Shown piece by piece: positions 2,180 through 64,000 of a DNA stretch of 64,000 nucleotides; within the stretch, counting starts at the first letter, position 1, and each line of letters opens with the position of its first letter. A model generated the notes under the pieces. It was not told the origin of the DNA. It did no database searches and worked only from the letters and a program-made list of their open reading frames with translations. A program made the translations under genes and the position numbers. The stretch is from Escherichia coli (lineage in GTDB: Bacteria; Pseudomonadota; Gammaproteobacteria; Enterobacterales; Enterobacteriaceae): NCBI RefSeq assembly GCF_044324785.1, contig NZ_CP172127.1. The stretch is one strand, 5' to 3'.

Positions 2180-3421
2180 ATGAAATGGTTTAACACCTTA
2201 AGTCACAACCGTTGGCTGGAACAGGAAACCGATCGCATCTTTGATTTTGGTAAAAATTCCGTAGTACCGACCGGATTTGGCTGGTTAGGCAATAAAGGGC
2301 AAATCAAAGAAGAGATGGGCACCCATCTGTGGATCACCGCTCGTATGTTGCACGTTTATTCTGTTGCTGCGGCGATGGGTCGACCTGGCGCTTACTCGTT
2401 GGTTGATCACGGTATCAAAGCCATGAACGGCGCACTGCGCGATAAAAAATATGGCGGTTGGTATGCCTGCGTGAATGACGAGGGCGTGGTGGATGCCTCC
2501 AAACAGGGCTATCAACACTTCTTTGCTCTGCTGGGTGCCGCCAGCGCGGTCACAACGGGTCACCCGGAAGCACGCAAGCTGCTCGATTACACCATTGAAA
2601 TTATCGAGAAATACTTCTGGAGCGAAGAAGAGCAGATGTGCCTTGAGTCCTGGGACGAAGCCTTCAGCAAAACCGAAGAATATCGCGGTGGCAATGCCAA
2701 CATGCACGCGGTAGAAGCCTTCCTGATTGTCTATGACGTCACGCATGACAAAAAATGGCTGGATCGCGCCATTCGCGTGGCTTCCGTGATTATCCACGAT
2801 GTCGCCAGAAATAATCATTATCGCGTTAACGAGCACTTCGATACCCAGTGGAATCCGCTGCCGGATTACAACAAAGATAACCCGGCGCACCGCTTCCGCG
2901 CGTTCGGAGGTACTCCGGGCCACTGGATCGAATGGGGCCGTTTAATGCTGCACATCCACGCTGCCCTGGAAGCCCGCTTCGAACAGCCGCCTGCCTGGCT
3001 GCTAGAAGATGCCAAAGGTCTGTTTAACGCCACCGTGCGCGATGCCTGGGCACCCGATGGCGCGGACGGGATTGTTTATACCGTTGACTGGGAAGGAAAA
3101 CCGGTGGTCCGCGAACGTGTGCGTTGGCCTATCGTCGAAGCGATGGGTACGGCCTACGCGCTCTACACCGTCACCGGCGATCGCCAGTATGAAACCTGGT
3201 ATCAGACATGGTGGGACTACTGCATTAAGTACCTGATGGACTATGAAAATGGTTCCTGGTGGCAGGAGCTGGATGCGGACAATAAGGTCACCACCAAAGT
3301 CTGGGACGGCAAACAGGATATTTATCACCTGCTGCATTGCCTGGTGATCCCGCGTATCCCGTTAGCGCCAGGCCTGGCTCCGGCAGTTGCGGCGGGTCTG
3401 CTGGATATTAACGCGAAATAA
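2180..3421 (+). CDS. yihS: sulfoquinovose isomerase (AGE-fold)
   Basis: 413-aa ORF, recognised protein, synteny. Confidence 0.88.
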
Positions 3422-3487
3422 CTGACTAAAAAAACGACATATCAGGCTGCACGCCGGGTATGTCGTTATTCAATAAAGGTACCTCGT

Positions 3488-4390
3488 ATGCAAATCACCA
3501 ACATGCATTGCAGTGGACAGACCGTTTCACTTGCCGCGGGGGATTATCACGCGACTATCGTGACGGTTGGTGCTGGTCTGGCTGAATTAACCTTTCAGGG
3601 TTGTCATTTAGTCATCCCGCACAAACCCGAAGAGATGCCGCTGGCGCATCTGGGTAAAGTGCTTATTCCGTGGCCGAACCGGATCGCCAACGGCTGTTAC
3701 CGCTATCAGGGGCAGGACTATCAGTTACCCATTAATGAACATAGTTCAAAAGCCGCTATTCACGGGCTGCTTGCCTGGCGTGACTGGCAAATTAGCGAAT
3801 TAACCGCCACCAGCGTTACCCTGACAGCTTTTCTGCCGCCCAGTTACGGCTATCCGTTTATGCTGGCTTCACAAGTTGTTTATTCGCTCAATGCTCGCAC
3901 GGGCCTTTCCGTTGAGATCGCAAGCCAGAATATTGGTACTGTGACCGCACCTTATGGTGTGGGTATTCATCCTTATTTAACCTGTGACTTAACGCCTGTT
4001 GATGACTATCTTTTCCAGCTTCCGGCAGAACAGGTTTATGCCGTCGATGAGCACGCAAATCCGACAACGCTTCACCACGTTGATGAGCTGAATTTAAATT
4101 TCACGCGGGCGACAAAAATAGCCGCGACAAAAATCGACCACACCTTTAAAACCGCTAATGATCTGTGGGAAATGACCATTACCCATCCACAGCATTTGCT
4201 TTCGGTGAGCCTCTGTTCCGATCAACCCTGGGTGCAGGTTTATAGCGGTGAAAAATTACAGCGTCAGGGACTGGCAGTTGAACCTATGAGTTGCCCGCCT
4301 GATGCGTTTAATTCAGGTATCGACTTATTATTACTGGAACCAGGAAAAACGCACCGCCTGTTTTTTAATATTCACGGGCAGCACAATTAA
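3488..4390 (+). CDS. yihR: aldose 1-epimerase family protein (sulfoquinovose mutarotase)
   Basis: 300-aa ORF, recognised protein, synteny. Confidence 0.85.
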   Translation: MQITNMHCSGQTVSLAAGDYHATIVTVGAGLAELTFQGCHLVIPHKPEEMPLAHLGKVLIPWPNRIANGCYRYQGQDYQLPINEHSSKAAIHGLLAWRDWQISELTATSVTLTAFLPPSYGYPFMLASQVVYSLNARTGLSVEIASQNIGTVTAPYGVGIHPYLTCDLTPVDDYLFQLPAEQVYAVDEHANPTTLHHVDELNLNFTRATKIAATKIDHTFKTANDLWEMTITHPQHLLSVSLCSDQPWVQVYSGEKLQRQGLAVEPMSCPPDAFNSGIDLLLLEPGKTHRLFFNIHGQHN

Positions 4391-28366: not shown

Positions 28367-28729
28367 AATGTCCGTGCCTGTTTATCAGATTATGGGTAAA
28401 GGATGCCACAGACAGGATGAAAACATGAGTTTTTCACCGCTTTTCGTGAAAATCTTTTGTAGATCTTCTGGATCGCTCGCAAATCGTCATGTGGATAACT
28501 TTGTGCATAAATTATTTACATCGCTTTTAATTTATTATCATGCTTTTTACAGCATGATGTTTGTCTTTGTTTTTCATGAAGTTAAAAATAAGACCATCCC
28601 TAATAATTGAGATAATGGGATTTTTTCTAATGTGGATAGATATGAATTATTTTTCTCCTTAAGGATCATCCGTTATTTGGGTCGTTTTCTGCTAAAATCT
28701 GCGCCTTGCGCTTCTTTAGCGCACTGTCT

Positions 28730-29702: not shown

Positions 29703-31133
29703 TTAATGAACAAAACGTCCGGCACGAGACATAAATTCTTCTTCGCTCATTTCCTGTCCGTTAAAAACAACTTTACCCGGTGTATAACGCAGTTGCAGCG
29801 AGGCGGTATTGTTGTCAATCGTGATTAACTGAAACATCTGACCTAATGTCATCATCCCGCTGATTTGTTTATCAGCCCGCTTTTGCGCTTTTTCAGCATC
29901 CATTCCTTCAGATAAATTAAGCTGTTTTGCGGTTTCTGTGACGACATTAAGCGGTAACTTCACATCAAAATTGAGCGATTTAATATCTTTGTTTGTGGAT
30001 GATGAGGATTTGGCTGGGTCGGCAATACTGATATCCAGATTGGCATTTAGTTCGCCGAGTGCATTCTTCCATCTTACCGGTTGTTTAATGGTCGGCTCAC
30101 TTTTTTGTAATAACGGTAAATACTCTTTGAACAATGCAGCATTCACTTCTTGCAGAGCAACTTCATCGTTTGCTAACTCAGGGTGTGCAGCAAGCTGCTT
30201 CTGCATCGCAATGTTATACTGGATGACAAATTGGCGCACCGCTGAGGGATCAATAGATTCAGCAATCAATGACCACTCACCACTACCGAGTTGCTGATTC
30301 CCTTTTGTTAACTTATCAAGTTCGTAGGTCAGATTGACATTGATATAATCTTTGTCTTTAACGCGATCCAGCCTGGTTTTTGCAACGAAAGCATCGATTT
30401 GGGCAACGTCTTCCCCGTGATTGATAATGTTAATCTGGTTAAATTTCGACTCGCTTTCGCCAACCGGAAATTTCTTTTCTTCTAATCGCGTTAGAGAATC
30501 AATGGTAAAACTTTTCGCCGTTACTTTGTTCAATGGCGATAGTTCTAAAACAATATCTTCGACTTTGCCTTCAATATCCAGGTTAGATAATGAACTACCA
30601 TCACCATTAAAAGTAAACTGGCCCTTACCAAAGGAAAACTTTCCATACTCTGCAGGGGCAACATCTAATGTCGTGGAGAATGAGCTACCAAACGCGAATC
30701 GCAATGTCGCTTCCACGGGCGATTTATTTTTTGCGGCGATAAATAGCGGTTGTGTCAGTTCATTATTCACAAAGTTCACTTTTGCCGCTGCCAGTGCGGG
30801 GATGACATTACCACGCATTAACATTGTGATGGGCAACGGACCGTGCTCAACATCCACATCAAATGCAACTTTCTGGCCTGGCTTGATATTGAGATCGGGT
30901 GCACCGTTATCAAATGTTATTTGCATTTGAAAATGAGAATTAAAAAAGCCTTTGTCAAAGTTTTTATAACTTAACGTCATATCGTAGGCATGTTCACCTT
31001 TCTTTTTAGCATCGTTAAAATCTTTAATAAATTTTTCGACACCAGGCTGAATTTGCGTACCTGTGTACCATGTGCCACCACCCCAGATTACGGCTAACGC
31101 AACAATAACACCTGTAGCTGACTTACGTATCAT
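29703..31133 (-). CDS. yihF: DUF945-family protein
   Basis: ORF track starts at 31175; likely start 31133 (MIRKSATGVIVALAVIWGGG), synteny. Confidence 0.82.
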   Translation of the reverse strand: MIRKSATGVIVALAVIWGGGTWYTGTQIQPGVEKFIKDFNDAKKKGEHAYDMTLSYKNFDKGFFNSHFQMQITFDNGAPDLNIKPGQKVAFDVDVEHGPLPITMLMRGNVIPALAAAKVNFVNNELTQPLFIAAKNKSPVEATLRFAFGSSFSTTLDVAPAEYGKFSFGKGQFTFNGDGSSLSNLDIEGKVEDIVLELSPLNKVTAKSFTIDSLTRLEEKKFPVGESESKFNQINIINHGEDVAQIDAFVAKTRLDRVKDKDYINVNLTYELDKLTKGNQQLGSGEWSLIAESIDPSAVRQFVIQYNIAMQKQLAAHPELANDEVALQEVNAALFKEYLPLLQKSEPTIKQPVRWKNALGELNANLDISIADPAKSSSSTNKDIKSLNFDVKLPLNVVTETAKQLNLSEGMDAEKAQKRADKQISGMMTLGQMFQLITIDNNTASLQLRYTPGKVVFNGQEMSEEEFMSRAGRFVH

Positions 31134-31286
31134 ATAAATATTCCCTGATAAAACAGCAAAACTTTGAATATCCACTTATGCTGAAATAATGTCCAGCGGC
31201 AGGATGCATTATCAGAATGTATTTATATTTATTAAATAATAAAAAAGCCCGTGAATATTCACGGGCTTTATGTAATTTACATTGAA

Positions 31287-31913
31287 TTATTTTTTCTCGG
31301 ACAGATATTTCACTGTATCAGCATACTGCTGAACAAAAACATCCATATTGCTGGTATCCATACCCTGCGGATTCAGCTGATATTTACCGTTAACAAACAT
31401 CGCCGGAACACCACGCAATTGCACGTCAGCTGCAGCTTTTTCCTGCTGAGCGACCAGAGATTTCACCACGAAGCTGTTCCACGCCGCGTCGTACTCTTCA
31501 CCTTTAATACCTGCGTTGATAAATACATCGCGGATATCAGATGCTGAACGAATGGTCTGGGTTTTCTGTACGCCTTCAAACAGCGGAACAGTCACTTTGT
31601 CTTCCACGCCCAGCGCCATCGCCACAGCCCATGCCTGAGTCAGATCTTTGCCCAGGTCACCACCCATGAAGTTGACGTGGTATTTAGTCATCTTCACGCC
31701 TTCCGGCAGTTTTTTCTTCACATTATCAGAAATATGCAGAACTTCTTCAAACTGATAGCAGTGCGGGCAGAAGAAAGAGAAAAACTCCAGCACTTGCGGC
31801 GCGCCAGCTACCGGTTTTTCCAGGGTAGTGTACTGTTTACCATCTTCATACTGCGCCGCCGATGCGCTAAACGCTAAAACTAAACCAGCCAGCGCCAGCC
31901 AAATCTTTTTCAT
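31287..31913 (-). CDS. dsbA: periplasmic thiol:disulfide oxidoreductase DsbA
   Basis: 208-aa ORF, signal peptide, CPHC active site. Confidence 0.95.
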
Positions 31914-59370: not shown

Positions 59371-60132
59371 TTACAGCAGACGACGCGCCGCTTCCACCAC
59401 GATTTTCACCGCTTGGCTTTCAGTTTGTTTCATCGTCTCAGCATTCGGGATCTCTTGCTGGGTGCGGTTAACGATAACACCCGCTACCATACCGGCACGC
59501 AGGCCCTGACTTGCACACATGGTCAGCAGGGTTGCAGATTCCATTTCATAGTTCATTACGCCCATCGCCTGCCACTCTTCCATAGAACCTTTAAAGTGAC
59601 GAACTACGCGACCAGAGTAAGTATCGTAACGTTCCTGGCCTGGGTAGAAGGTATCAGAAGAAGCCGTCACGCCAACGTGAGTCGTCGCGCCAATGGATTT
59701 CGCCGCTTCAACCAGCGCAGTCGTACATTCGAAATCAGCGACAGCCGGGAATTCCAGCGGTGCGAAGTGCAAGCTCGCGCCATCCAGACGAACAGACGCC
59801 GTGGTAACCAGGACATCGCCAACATTAATATGCGGCTGAATAGCGCCCGTTGTACCGATACGCAGGAAGGTGCGAATGCCCAGCTGTGCCAGCTCTTCAA
59901 CAGCAATAGAGGTAGACGGGCCGCCGATACCGGTAGAGCAGACGATAACAGGTTTACCATCCAGCTCTGCACGCCAGGTGGTGAATTCGCGGTGAGATGC
60001 CAGCTTAACCGGCTTATCCATCAGCGCGGCGATCTTTTCCACACGATCCGGGTCGCCAGGGACGATGGCAAGCGTAGCCCCTTGTAAATCGTTTTTAGTG
60101 AGGCCGAGATGAAAAACATCAGACTTGGACAT
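59371..60132 (-). CDS. udp: uridine phosphorylase
   Basis: ORF track starts at 60138; likely start 60132 ([16 protein letters not shown]), 253 aa. Confidence 0.95.
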
Positions 60133-60255
60133 ATACAACTCCTCTGTGAATCGGTTTAGTCAGAAGAAGCAAAAAGACACTTTACCGAAGGGTTTAACAT
60201 TTTTTCGTGATACTCATCACCATGACGCAAATGCGTTGCATAAATTTACCCACCA

Positions 60256-60277
60256 AAAGTGATGCAAATCACATAAA
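60256..60277. promoter_or_regulatory. CRP-like site (AAGTGATGCAAATCACAT) in the udp promoter region
   Basis: TGTGA-N6-TCACA-like palindrome read directly; udp is known to be CRP/CytR regulated. Confidence 0.45.
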
Positions 60278-60393
60278 TCACTCTTCATTCTGCAGGACTG
60301 CATAAAAGATGAGCCGATTCAGGCAATGTGATTTGTTGCATGCTGACTATAGTTAACATTGCGCAACATTTTTATAAGGGTACGGAGAATACC

Positions 60394-61206
60394 ATGGCAA
60401 CAACACAACAATCTGGATTTGCACCTGCTGCATCGCCTCTCGCTTCGACCATCGTTCAGACTCCGGACGACGCGATTGTGGCGGGCTTCACCTCTATCCC
60501 TTCACAAGGGGATAACATGCCTGCTTACCATGCCAGACCAAAGCAGAGCGATGGCCCACTGCCAGTGGTCATTGTAGTGCAGGAAATTTTTGGCGTGCAT
60601 GAACATATCCGCGACATTTGTCGCCGTCTGGCGCTGGAGGGGTATCTGGCTATTGCACCTGAACTTTACTTCCGCGAAGGCGATCCGAATGATTTTGCCG
60701 ATATCCCCACGTTGCTTAGCGGTCTGGTAGCAAAAGTGCCTGACTCGCAGGTGCTGGCCGATCTCGATCATGTCGCCAGTTGGGCTTCCCGCAACGGCGG
60801 CGATGTTCATCGTTTAATGATCACCGGATTCTGCTGGGGTGGGCGCATCACCTGGCTGTATGCCGCGCATAATCCACAGCTAAAAGCCGCGGTGGCGTGG
60901 TACGGCAAGCTGACAGGCGATAAGTCGCTGAATTCACCGAAACAACCTGTTGATATCGCAACCGATCTTAACGCGCCGGTTCTCGGCTTATATGGTGGTC
61001 AGGATAACAGCATTCCGCAGGAGAGCGTGGAAACGATGCGCCAGGCGCTGCGGGCTGCTAATGCGAAAGCAGAGATTATCGTGTACCCGGATGCCGGGCA
61101 TGCATTCAACGCTGATTATCGCCCGAGCTATCATGCCGAATCTGCGAAAGACGGCTGGCAGCGAATGTTGGAATGGTTTAAGCAGTATGGTGGGAAGCGG
61201 AGTTAG
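60394..61206 (+). CDS. ysgA: dienelactone hydrolase family protein
   Basis: ORF track starts at 60328; likely start 60394 (MATTQQSGFAPAAS), 271 aa; nucleophile motif GFCWGG. Confidence 0.88.
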   Translation: MATTQQSGFAPAASPLASTIVQTPDDAIVAGFTSIPSQGDNMPAYHARPKQSDGPLPVVIVVQEIFGVHEHIRDICRRLALEGYLAIAPELYFREGDPNDFADIPTLLSGLVAKVPDSQVLADLDHVASWASRNGGDVHRLMITGFCWGGRITWLYAAHNPQLKAAVAWYGKLTGDKSLNSPKQPVDIATDLNAPVLGLYGGQDNSIPQESVETMRQALRAANAKAEIIVYPDAGHAFNADYRPSYHAESAKDGWQRMLEWFKQYGGKRS

Positions 61207-61598
61207 TTTCCTCTTAGTCTATATTTGAGATGGTGAGTGAACGAGTGCGTTTTGCTGCCATCTCTGTCCCCCAAAAAATAATCAGTATGAATTGATTGGA
61301 GATTACGACTCCGCTATTTGACCTTAAGAAAGTCGGCAAGTCATAGTCATAAATGAGTCTCTTCAATGGCAGACACCTTAGAGATTTACCATCAACTCCC
61401 ATTCACAAACAAACATTAATTATTATCAACACATTCACATTAATTATAAATCATCTCAGACCTTCCTGATAAAAAGATATTAAAGTGAAACATTTTGTTT
61501 TTCACATTTTAGTTCATCACTTTTAGGCGTAAATAAAGGTAAAAAAACAACAATACTATTTCTCTTTCACAAAAGAATTAACAAAAGGTTTTTCAAGG

Positions 61599-62747
61599 AT
61601 GAGTGATATTATTTACCTGAACATAACCGGAGAACAACAAGGATGTATTTCCTCTCGTTGTGGAACGAGCGCATCAATAGGTAATCGCTGGCAGATTGGC
61701 CATGAAGATGAAATCTTCGCGTTCTCGCTCTCTAATAGTATTACGAATACAGGCAAAGGGTCACAATTGCATGGCCTTAGTTTCTGTAAATTGATTGACA
61801 AAAGCTCCCCGTTACTTATTAACGCTATTAACAATAACGAGCAGTTGTTCATGGAGTTTGACTTCTATCGGATCAATAGATTTGGTCGATGGGAGAAATA
61901 TTACAACATTCAACTTCGCGGCGCGCTCTTATCAGCAATCAATCACCTGTTTACTGAGAACAATCTGGATACAGAAACCATCACTGTCAGTTATGAATAT
62001 ATACTCTCCAGGCATCTGATTGCTAATACTGAATTTAGTTATTTGGCATTTCCCGATAACTACAACCGTCTGTTTATACCACGGCCAAAAACTAAAGATG
62101 ATAATGGCCTCAAAACACTCAATAGTAAAGCGGTTGGCAGACTGCTTGCTGCTGGCGGCATATACAATGGGAATATCGAAGGATTCAGGGAAACAGCAAA
62201 CAAGTTGGGAGGAGATGCACCTGCTGGTTACGATCAAGTTATGGATAACAAAGGGTTACTCATCGCTGGTGCTTCAATAGTTGCTGGAGTTGTTCTGGGA
62301 AGAATGAGATTCCCTGATTTGGAATCACTTGAGCATTTCGGAGCCAGAGGAGCAGTATCAGGAAGACCATTTAATCCCGACCTTGCCGGTGGTCCAATAG
62401 AAAATCTGACGACAGATGGCGTAACAATCAACAGGGAAGGTATCGCTATTGTTGAAAAACACATAGCCAGATTTGGTCATGACCCTGTAAATGAAGTGAT
62501 GATCAATAGACTGAAAGACATTGAGAAAGGAAAAATCCCCCCAGAACAAGTAGATCTTAACTTCTATACTCATGAATGTCGGGAATATCAGCGTTACTGT
62601 AATCTTGGTTGGGAAACAGGACAACCTGATGGTGACGCAGGCTATGCACTCTGGAATCATACGCATACTGCTACTCTAGAAGATTATAAACTTAAGGGAG
62701 AACTTAATGACTTATACCACCAGGATGCACTTGACTATGATAACTGA
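61599..62747 (+). CDS. Hcp (T6SS TssD) N-terminal domain fused to an unassigned ~215-aa C-terminal domain; candidate 'extended Hcp' T6SS effector
   Basis: 382-aa ORF in an AT-rich island; residues 1–~165 show Hcp-family signatures (GLSFCKLIDKSSPLL, FDFYRINRFGRWEKYYNIQLRGALLSAIN, ETITVSYEYI); C-terminal domain is my inference from architecture. Confidence 0.8.
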   Translation: MSDIIYLNITGEQQGCISSRCGTSASIGNRWQIGHEDEIFAFSLSNSITNTGKGSQLHGLSFCKLIDKSSPLLINAINNNEQLFMEFDFYRINRFGRWEKYYNIQLRGALLSAINHLFTENNLDTETITVSYEYILSRHLIANTEFSYLAFPDNYNRLFIPRPKTKDDNGLKTLNSKAVGRLLAAGGIYNGNIEGFRETANKLGGDAPAGYDQVMDNKGLLIAGASIVAGVVLGRMRFPDLESLEHFGARGAVSGRPFNPDLAGGPIENLTTDGVTINREGIAIVEKHIARFGHDPVNEVMINRLKDIEKGKIPPEQVDLNFYTHECREYQRYCNLGWETGQPDGDAGYALWNHTHTATLEDYKLKGELNDLYHQDALDYDN

Positions 62748-62982
62748 AACTGAAATTAACGTACTGAAAGTTATGGCTGAGAAAGATATAAACTGGAACT
62801 GGATGAATCTCGATCGCACACTATCTATAAGGCAAATTCCAGGATTCGGTAATGTTGTTAACATTGTTAACAAATTAGCTAACGAGGGTTTGGTTATTAT
62901 TGAGGATAGCGGACATAAGTCTATGCCTCACTACCACGTTACTGAAAAGGGATACAATCTCGTGAAAAGTGAGAATAAATAA
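62707..62982 (+). CDS. small protein (91 aa) translationally coupled to the Hcp-fusion gene; candidate immunity protein
   Basis: Strong SD (AGGGAG, 6-nt spacer) before ATG 62707; overlaps upstream stop by 41 nt; alternative in-frame starts at 62725 and 62737; function inferred from position only. Confidence 0.55.
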   Translation: MTYTTRMHLTMITETEINVLKVMAEKDINWNWMNLDRTLSIRQIPGFGNVVNIVNKLANEGLVIIEDSGHKSMPHYHVTEKGYNLVKSENK

Positions 62983-63130
62983 CGTAGCGTTGATTACTGA
63001 ACAAATCGCTCAGGATTATATTTTGCGAAAAAAATGATTCGGTTATTTCTGTGTCTGAACGGCCGCAGATAGCAAAATGGCTTCCGGTGATGGAAGCCAT
63101 CAGATTATTGGCAAAGTGCGTGTTGTTCAT

Positions 63131-63218
63131 GCCGGATGCGGCGTGAACGCCTTATCTGGCCAACTAAATCTTGAAAATTCAATAAATTGAAGAAATTATG
63201 TAGGCCTGGTATCAGGCA
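63131..63218. repeat. REP palindromic units downstream of metE
   Basis: GCCGGATGCGGCGTGAACGCCTTATCTGGCC and GTAGGCCTGGTATCAGGCA read directly. Confidence 0.75.
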
Positions 63219-63268
63219 GTTTTGCCTCTTTCATCGTACTGCAATTTACAGTGACTCGTTAATACTCA

Positions 63269-64000
63269 TCACCCCCGTCGCAAATTCTGCGCCGCCTGCA
63301 CCATGTTCGCCAGTGCCGCGCGGGTTTCTGGCCAGCCGCGCGTTTTCAGGCCACAGTCCGGGTTTACCCACAGACGCTCTGCCGGAATGCGTTTTGCCGC
63401 TTTCTTCAGCAGGGCTTCAATCCATTCCACGCTCGGTACGTTTGGCGAGTGAATGTCATAGACGCCTGGACCGATTTCATTCGGATAATCAAACTCTTCG
63501 AACGACTCCAGCAACTCCATGTCAGAACGCGAGGTTTCGATGGTGATGACGTCTGCGTCCAGCGCCGCAATCGAATCCATGATGTCGTTGAACTCGCAGT
63601 AACACATGTGAGTGTGGATTTGTGTGTCATCTTTCGCCACGGCGGCGTTGATACGGAAAGCCTCCACGCCCCACTGGAGATAGGCATCCCAGTCGCTGCG
63701 ACGCAGCGGTAAACCTTCGCGCAGTGCCGGTTCATCAATCTGGATGATGCCAATTCCAGCGGCTTCCAGGTCCGCCACTTCATCACGCAGCGCCAGCGCA
63801 ATTTGTTTGGCGATGGTTTCACGGCTGACATCTTCACGCGGGAACGACCAACAGAGTATGGTAACCGGCCCCGTCAGCATCCCTTTCACCGGTTTGTCGG
63901 TCAGCGATTGTGCATATTTCGCCCACTCCACGGTAATTGGTGCCGGGCGGCTAACGTCACCAATGACAATCGGCGGCTTCACGCAGCGGGAACCGTAGCT
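63269..64000 (-). CDS. metE: cobalamin-independent methionine synthase, C-terminal part; gene runs off the window end
   Basis: Reverse-strand ORF open to window end; C-terminal sequence ...[33 protein letters not shown] recognised. Confidence 0.93.

Follow-up and report, generated by a model that had tools for sequence, protein, structure and literature searches.

The AT-rich leader of an orphan Hcp-toxin gene between ysgA and metE of Escherichia coli: probable control region of a small horizontally acquired islet

The window analysed here, a stretch of 64,000 nucleotides of Escherichia coli DNA, has at its right end the rmuC-udp-ysgA ... metE region of E. coli. In K-12 the convergent ysgA and metE genes of this region are about 40-53 bp apart and have a strong hairpin terminator between them, and in the window the 53-bp K-12 spacer is, together with this terminator hairpin, substituted by an islet with a gene for an Hcp (TssD) fusion protein, a small ORF behind it and a long AT-rich leader in front of it. 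The features are, from left to right:

61195 to 61206, plus strand: left junction of the islet, in the 3' end of ysgA (sequence comparison)
61198 to 63270: Hcp-toxin islet, 2,073 bp with 39.4% G+C (blastn against the K-12 locus)
61198 to 61400: distal, lineage-specific half of the leader, 203 bp with 41% G+C
61402 to 61214, minus strand: ORF of 62 aa (ORF list)
61227 to 61264, plus strand: imperfect 38-nt hairpin with arms GAGATGG and CCATCTC (fold)
61401 to 61598, plus strand: proximal leader, 24.7% G+C, homologous to other Hcp-toxin leaders
61599 to 62747, plus strand: Hcp (TssD) fusion gene, 382 aa, intact (Pfam, TIGR03344)
62737 to 62982, plus strand: presumed immunity gene of 81 aa overlapping the toxin stop (hypothetical protein in strain N3)
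63125 to 63217: non-coding features of the right end of the islet (sub-threshold Rfam matches, terminator-like site)

In a blastn comparison with the K-12 ysgA-metE locus, the window is homologous up to 61197 and again from 63271 on, and alignment to the K-12 spacer thus fixes the junctions at 61197/61198 and 63270/63271. The homology gap from 61198 to 63270 and the low G+C of the islet agree with the proposal, made in an earlier sequence-only reading of the region, that the interval in front of the Hcp-fusion gene has been horizontally acquired. The same reading suggested that a small inverted repeat just after ysgA may mark the left junction, but the true junction is found 30 bp upstream of this repeat in the last codons of ysgA, the C-termini of which read ...GGKKSL* in K-12, ...GGKRS* in the window and ...GVKK* in B2 strains, and with the junctions thus corrected the 3' end of ysgA emerges as a recurrent recombination point. 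The right breakpoint is the metE stop codon (63269). Flanking direct repeats of the islet are limited to short ones at chance level, and no integrase ORF is present within the islet in the ORF list.

The inverted repeat does exist, but its arms are located at 61227-61233 and 61258-61264, about 6 nt to the left of where they had been put. They close a long imperfect stem with G-U pairs that is rich in AU and GU, and the 111 nt around it fold with a z of -2.3. The suggestion that the repeat marks the ysgA terminator does not hold, since the hairpin is followed by UGUCCCCCAAAAAA rather than by a U-run and is not called by the terminator scan, which also disposes of it as a canonical intrinsic terminator. 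A REP element was likewise considered and rejected, as the hairpin has only a chance-level similarity of 12/15 positions to the REP at 63135-63149 and is missed by the Rfam naRNA4 model. At the metE-proximal end of the islet a REP-like element on the minus strand (63125-63161) gives a sub-threshold match to naRNA4 and is adjoined by an equally sub-threshold ES036 match (63166-63207), and a terminator-like hairpin at 63204-63217 adjoins the metE stop. It is because of the REP that tens of thousands of extra BLAST places are obtained with a query running from ysgA to metE.

The Hcp domain of the fusion protein comprises residues 1-147 (Pfam T6SS_HCP PF05638 at 6-135, TIGR03344 at 1-147), and the protein as a whole is 92% identical to the annotated intact tssD product WP_001521777. 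Its C-terminal toxin domain of about 210 aa (62106-62744) has no sequence match in Pfam, NCBIfam or PDB; Lonsdalea and Enterobacter have related C-terminal regions (residues ~140/172-377), which there seem to be joined to other N-terminal carriers. The nearest genome, that of strain N3, is 99.85% identical but has lost 1 nt from a C-run at 62537, for which reason its tssD carries the annotation of a frameshifted pseudogene; the window copy is intact. In the B2 strain PU-1 the gene is annotated with an internal stop.

The presumed immunity gene is found singly in the window, whereas two paralogous small ORFs follow the toxin gene in other strains, as exemplified by the locus L004 (positions 3329-3906), and the toxin C-termini differ in step with this difference. 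Of the two small ORFs of L004, the second, an orphan, has 88% identity to the 81-aa ORF and the first only 63%. Judged by sequence, the orphan-ORF arrangement is that of a classic polymorphic-toxin displacement, in which a putative immunity gene is left behind as an orphan. Comparison of the window with PU-1 over 61401-62300 gives identities of 70.5% for the leader, 97.6% for the Hcp domain, 99% for the linker and 82% for the C-terminal toxin, and the comparison with L004 gives 100% for the Hcp domain and linker and 97% for ysgA and the leader. The identities point to recombination that keeps the N-terminal coding part uniform, with older histories surviving in the leaders, and the N-terminal coding part may be a homology arm for toxin swapping.

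Of 5426 complete E. coli genomes, 387 (about 7%) have the whole leader, which is 95-100% identical and always on the chromosome, and the carrier strains include ST38, O145, O121 and ETEC. The leader had been tied to the Hcp-fusion gene in the sequence-only reading, and it has not been found unchanged without it, since 384 of the 387 carriers hold at least 80% of a 2.6-kb ysgA-to-metE query (window positions 60900-63500), gene included, and three exceptions examined all proved to be IS events. One carrier has an IS1 with a 9-bp target duplication at 61515-61523, between the candidate -10 hexamer described below and the ATG, another has an IS1 at 61437 with the toxin gene deleted and an immunity gene kept, and some strains have an IS3 at 61232/61233 within the hairpin. 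In one strain the IS3-bearing allele is located beside T3SS genes instead of ysgA. Furthermore, the 387 genomes hold 422 match places, a surplus which suggests that the leader is split in as many as about 35 of them. IS3 and IS1 have repeatedly inserted into the leader.

Between the ysgA stop codon (TAG, 61204-61206) and the ATG of the Hcp-fusion gene at 61599 there are 392 bp (61207-61598) with a G+C content of 32.7% as opposed to 50.6% in the window, and only 0.16% of all 392-nt windows are as low, so that the description of this interval as about 390 very AT-rich base pairs is well founded; the AT-rich run quoted in its support is located at 61404-61452. The proximal leader is the 198-nt stretch with the lowest G+C of the entire window, and its nine A/T-tracts of at least 4 nt are likewise the window maximum, the distal leader having 41.4% G+C. 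Expressed as A+T, the values are 67% for the 392-bp interval, 75% for the proximal 198 bp, 58% for the gene body and 49% for the window. Other stretches in which the G+C over 198 nt is 30% or less are in the window confined to about 28440-28710 and about 31100-31320. The AT-rich leader is a real feature but one of an ordinary kind, which is of modest interest and leaves current concepts unchanged, and the interval, itself non-coding, probably has a regulatory role in the control of a small T6SS toxin gene gained by horizontal transfer.

The distal half of the leader is missing from B2 strains, and a distant blastn search of E. coli genomes detected no homolog outside the same 387 genomes, which we denote type A. 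Plasmids likewise gave no match, and neither did blastn against 30 fetched loci, for which six-frame tblastn had a best E of 0.015 that was judged to be chance. A remnant of a gene or of a repeat was rejected on these grounds, and the distal 203 bp would seem to be lineage-specific filler with one hairpin.

A small protein, or an RNA that is small or structured, must also be considered as a product of the interval, the more so as the 62-aa ORF on the minus strand is located downstream of the best promoter-like match of the region (minus strand, 61472-61443, 10/12 positions). Only one further ORF of at least 30 aa overlaps the interval, a 38-aa ORF on the plus strand, and no annotated feature is found under the leader match among the 40 matches listed of the 387 RefSeq records. 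The 62-aa ORF moreover lacks a Shine-Dalgarno sequence, and in an alignment with a 97%-identical variant, read by hand, it differs by 4 non-synonymous changes and 1 synonymous change. The two small ORFs are ruled out as genes by the annotation-free RefSeq matches listed and by the non-synonymous pattern, and the earlier notion that the interval contains no convincing ORF can thus be upheld. As for RNA, Rfam over 60000-64000 has no match within the leader at an E of 1 or less, its two sub-threshold matches both being outside the leader, the whole leader folds no better than its shuffles (z = -0.14), and RNAalifold finds in the aligned leaders a structure of just -1.6 kcal/mol with no covariation or compensatory pairs. 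A structured 5'UTR, a riboswitch and an sRNA were hence rejected for want of signal from Rfam, single-sequence fold and alignment fold alike, and it is highly improbable that a small product of either kind is what the interval is for.

The proximal part of the leader, some 170-200 bp, can on the other hand be aligned with the corresponding leaders in B2 E. coli, at Citrobacter and Salmonella-type loci and in front of yhhZ in K-12. In the B2 type, represented by about 461 additional genomes, a 14-kb metabolic island separates ysgA from the Hcp gene, the B2 ysgA..metE island being a listed genomic region (PMC12928451), and these loci retain the leader from 61401 on only, at about 70-72% identity. 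Relatives of the Hcp domain are furthermore found in two Citrobacter genomes, at K-12 yhhY-yhhZ, at the E. coli aroP locus and at six further chromosomal sites in other Enterobacteriaceae, and yhhX/pirin-flanked loci of the yhhZ type in other assemblies can be aligned as well, one of the protein clusters being named Salmonella enterica. The last 200 bp of the relatives' leaders have 23-31% G+C, with one exception at 41.5%. Our alignment A1 is confined to the clade in which the Hcp domain is at least about 73% identical and contains nine leaders, namely those of the window, a second type-A variant, the B2 type, two Citrobacter loci, K-12 yhhZ and three other yhhX/yhhY-flanked loci; leaders of family members with an Hcp identity of 69% or less could not be aligned. 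Orphan Hcp-toxin genes occur at many sites, such as aroP (aroP-pdhR), proP, tamB/ytfP, yncE and kdp/ybfA, all of them with 135-530 bp of AT-rich leader in front, but the leader sequence is common only to the closest clade among these dispersed loci. The elements of the proximal leader are:

61457 to 61469, plus strand: conserved block 1, CAGACCTTCCTGA (family consensus CAGAtTTtCCTCA), A1 columns 12-24
61481 to 61500, plus strand: conserved 20-bp box, TAAAGTGAAACATTTTGTTT, about 117 nt upstream of the ATG
61485 to 61513, plus strand: candidate sigma-70 promoter with -35 GTGAAA (61485-61490), a 17-nt spacer and -10 TTTAGT (61508-61513), from an approximate matrix scan
61525 to 61536, plus strand: conserved block, AGGCGTAAATAA, A1 columns 79-90
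61584 to 61588, plus strand: Shine-Dalgarno-like AAAGG (family consensus AAAAGGA), from sequence and A1

The most conserved of these is the 20-bp box, which is invariant at 16/20 positions in A1 and has a pairwise identity of 0.87 in the aligned leaders as compared with 0.55 for the leader overall. Each of 14 loci has a single copy of a degenerate pattern of the box, AAADTGWAAYRTTTTRTTT, which is placed 117 +/- 3 nt upstream of the ATG, and a search of 36 loci revealed no occurrence beyond these 14 leader copies; the single occurrence in the window should be seen against an expectation of 0.03 by chance. The register of leader and ATG is kept across at least four chromosomal sites. This phylogenetic footprint, common to paralogous and orthologous leaders, lends support to the idea, already put forward from sequence, that we are dealing with a promoter or regulatory region. 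The conservation of the proximal leader and the box across paralogous loci and genera, including K-12 yhhZ, is the modest new element of the present analysis, and no earlier description of the box was found in the literature examined.

It could nonetheless be argued that the interval is merely left over from donor DNA, without function and without a part in regulation, since the distal half is devoid of homologs and conserved features and since AT-rich DNA will yield promoter-like matches by chance. This seems improbable in view of the sharp conservation peak in otherwise diverged proximal leaders and of the ATG register retained across the different chromosomal sites.

What the box does is less readily decided. 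It may be the operator of a specific transcription factor, activator or repressor, that coordinates the dispersed orphan Hcp-toxin genes, instead of being part of a core promoter, and this is a possibility that we take seriously without favoring it. The fixed distance from box to ATG and the invariant positions across genera and loci are in agreement with an operator, the conservation is wider than a -35 hexamer needs, and an orphan nuclease-type Hcp was up-regulated together with T6SS genes in a transcriptome study (PMC6033998). However, no convincing match to the motifs of Cra, CRP, MetR, ArgR or sigma-54 could be seen by eye, the dyad GTGAAA-N9-TTTCAC is found in type-A leaders only, and the box is missing from the leaders of more distant family members. 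Of the sites inspected by eye in this way, Cra was rejected because only a TGAAAC half-site is present, which is not kept in yhhZ, CRP because the spacing is wrong, MetR (TGAA-N5-TTCA) because its second half agrees at 2/4 positions, ArgR because it agrees at 8/14 positions, and the sigma-54-like TGGCAG-N5-TTAG at 61366-61380 because it is type-A-specific and lacks the -12 GC. An even more far-reaching idea, which we regard as rather doubtful, is that the box and its flanking blocks, as the operator of a dedicated putative regulator or as a specialised promoter, unite the dispersed orphan Hcp-toxin genes as one regulon. Such a regulon would include the sites at ysgA-metE and yhhZ and the Citrobacter and Salmonella-type loci and would persist even in K-12, which is without a T6SS.

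The reading that we prefer is that the gene has its own promoter in the proximal part of the leader, where the conserved box would most likely supply the -35 or operator region. The candidate sigma-70 promoter given above would, going by its hexamers, start transcription near 61520 and give a 5'UTR of about 78 nt. The same -35 and -10 columns of the alignment score in 7/9 leaders when scanned with approximate sigma-70 matrices of our own making, the family having (G/T)TGAAA inside the box as its -35 and TTTAGT, TTAAAT or TATAC(G/A) 16-17 nt later. The hexamers of the candidate are weak, agreeing with the consensus at 4/6 and 3/6 positions, and a generic promoter scan gave 7 sites as against 6.1 expected from shuffles and did not call the candidate. 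As the generic scan thus shows no excess over shuffles, the position of the promoter is one that we infer, as we do the binding of H-NS discussed below.

Read-through from ysgA may instead be the main source of transcription of the Hcp-fusion gene, the leader then being a mere spacer. Since no terminator follows ysgA, read-through has to be considered as a rival or additional source of transcript: the K-12 hairpin terminator is missing from the window, the scan for terminator-like sites is negative on the plus strand of 61207-61598, and the 61227-61264 hairpin has no U-tail. The same proximal leader is however also found where the upstream neighbor is divergent (hxlB, in B2 strains) or unrelated, which means that the family must carry its own promoter, and the conserved box argues for a function as well. 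Read-through as the principal source is therefore rather unlikely.

Regarding H-NS, it seems plausible that the leader is bound and silenced by this protein. No match to the nucleation motif TCGATAAATT at up to two mismatches is present in 61207-61598, the nearest being inside the gene and at 63179; this motif is not obligatory for H-NS binding. In K-12 yhhZ and yrhA are H-NS-bound in two ChIP-chip data sets according to a compilation (PMC3661553, Table 1), but the published signal is placed inside yhhZ and yrhA and not explicitly over the yhhZ leader (PMC3661553), and two published supplements contain no start-site or H-NS entry for yhhZ. A T6SS cluster of E. coli (EHEC) is reported to be repressed by H-NS (Wan 2017, as cited in PMC6033998). 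Binding of H-NS to the leader is favored by its composition, by its IS1 and IS3 insertions, of a kind typical for AT-rich DNA of the H-NS type, and by the reports on yhhZ/yrhA and on the T6SS cluster, whereas the missing match to TCGATAAATT and the location of the K-12 signal in coding regions count against it.

Seen beside the observed islet boundaries, composition, gene linkage and conservation footprint, the preferred reading may be put as follows. We consider it reasonably, though by no means overwhelmingly, likely that a horizontally acquired effector/immunity islet of 2.07 kb has the interval as its 5' non-coding region, the proximal part of which carries the promoter of the gene and is predicted to be coated by H-NS. 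The proximal 170-200 bp or so would be the cis-regulatory leader that this clade of orphan Hcp-toxin genes (Hcp-ET) has inherited from its ancestor, and the 75% A+T, A-tract-rich leader would together with the 58% A+T gene body be coated by H-NS, leading to conditional expression of the Hcp-toxin gene. If the leader is indeed an H-NS-coated promoter, the antibacterial effector would be made only when de-repressed, which bears on when the carrier strains deploy it.

Several elements of the locus have counterparts in known systems. The terminator hairpin of K-12 ysgA/metE occupies the same position right after ysgA as the hairpin of the window, but the two are unrelated, since the former has 10 pairs, of which 7 are G-C, is followed by a T-run and is called as a terminator, whereas the latter has no U-tail. 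Silencing by H-NS is known for AT-rich regulatory regions of genes of foreign origin, among them bgl, proU and the SPI-6 T6SS of Salmonella. Like bgl, proU and T6SS clusters the leader is foreign, has an excess of A+T and many A-tracts and is a target of IS1 and IS3, but a high-affinity nucleation motif is missing from it at the two mismatches allowed. The gene itself is reminiscent of the orphan Hcp-ET effector/immunity modules (Ma et al. 2017, as summarised in PMC6730261 and PMC6099711), which have an Hcp domain with a C-terminal extension and a small downstream immunity-like gene and are found outside any T6SS cluster, as is the case in the window; what these two reviews summarise of the modules does not include the leader or its regulation. 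In terms of sequence the window gene has the pattern of an orphan Hcp-ET effector, with putative functions in delivery and immunity, but its C-terminal domain matches no Pfam family and the gene is therefore not placed in an Hcp-ET clan.

The closest counterpart of the leader is the yhhY-yhhZ intergenic region of K-12, which is the leader of the orphan Hcp-HNH gene yhhZ in the Hcp-ET1-type module yhhZ-yrhA and for which only the predicted promoters yhhZp5 and yhhZp7 are mentioned (PMC12428005). It differs from the window in its chromosomal site (yhhY/ggt as opposed to ysgA/metE) and in the toxin domain that follows (HNH), it is without the 203-bp distal segment, and outside the conserved blocks the two leaders are only about 55-60% identical. 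The DNA of the yhhZ Hcp domain is nonetheless 75% identical to that of the window gene, and the yhhZ leader is similarly AT-rich (27% G+C) and homologous to that of the window, with the box as TAAAGTGTAATATTTTATTT, the block as GGAGTAAATAA, AAAAGG as ribosome site and equal distances to the ATG. With the same leader and box in front of yhhZ in K-12, a standard laboratory strain is available for work on how this effector family is regulated.
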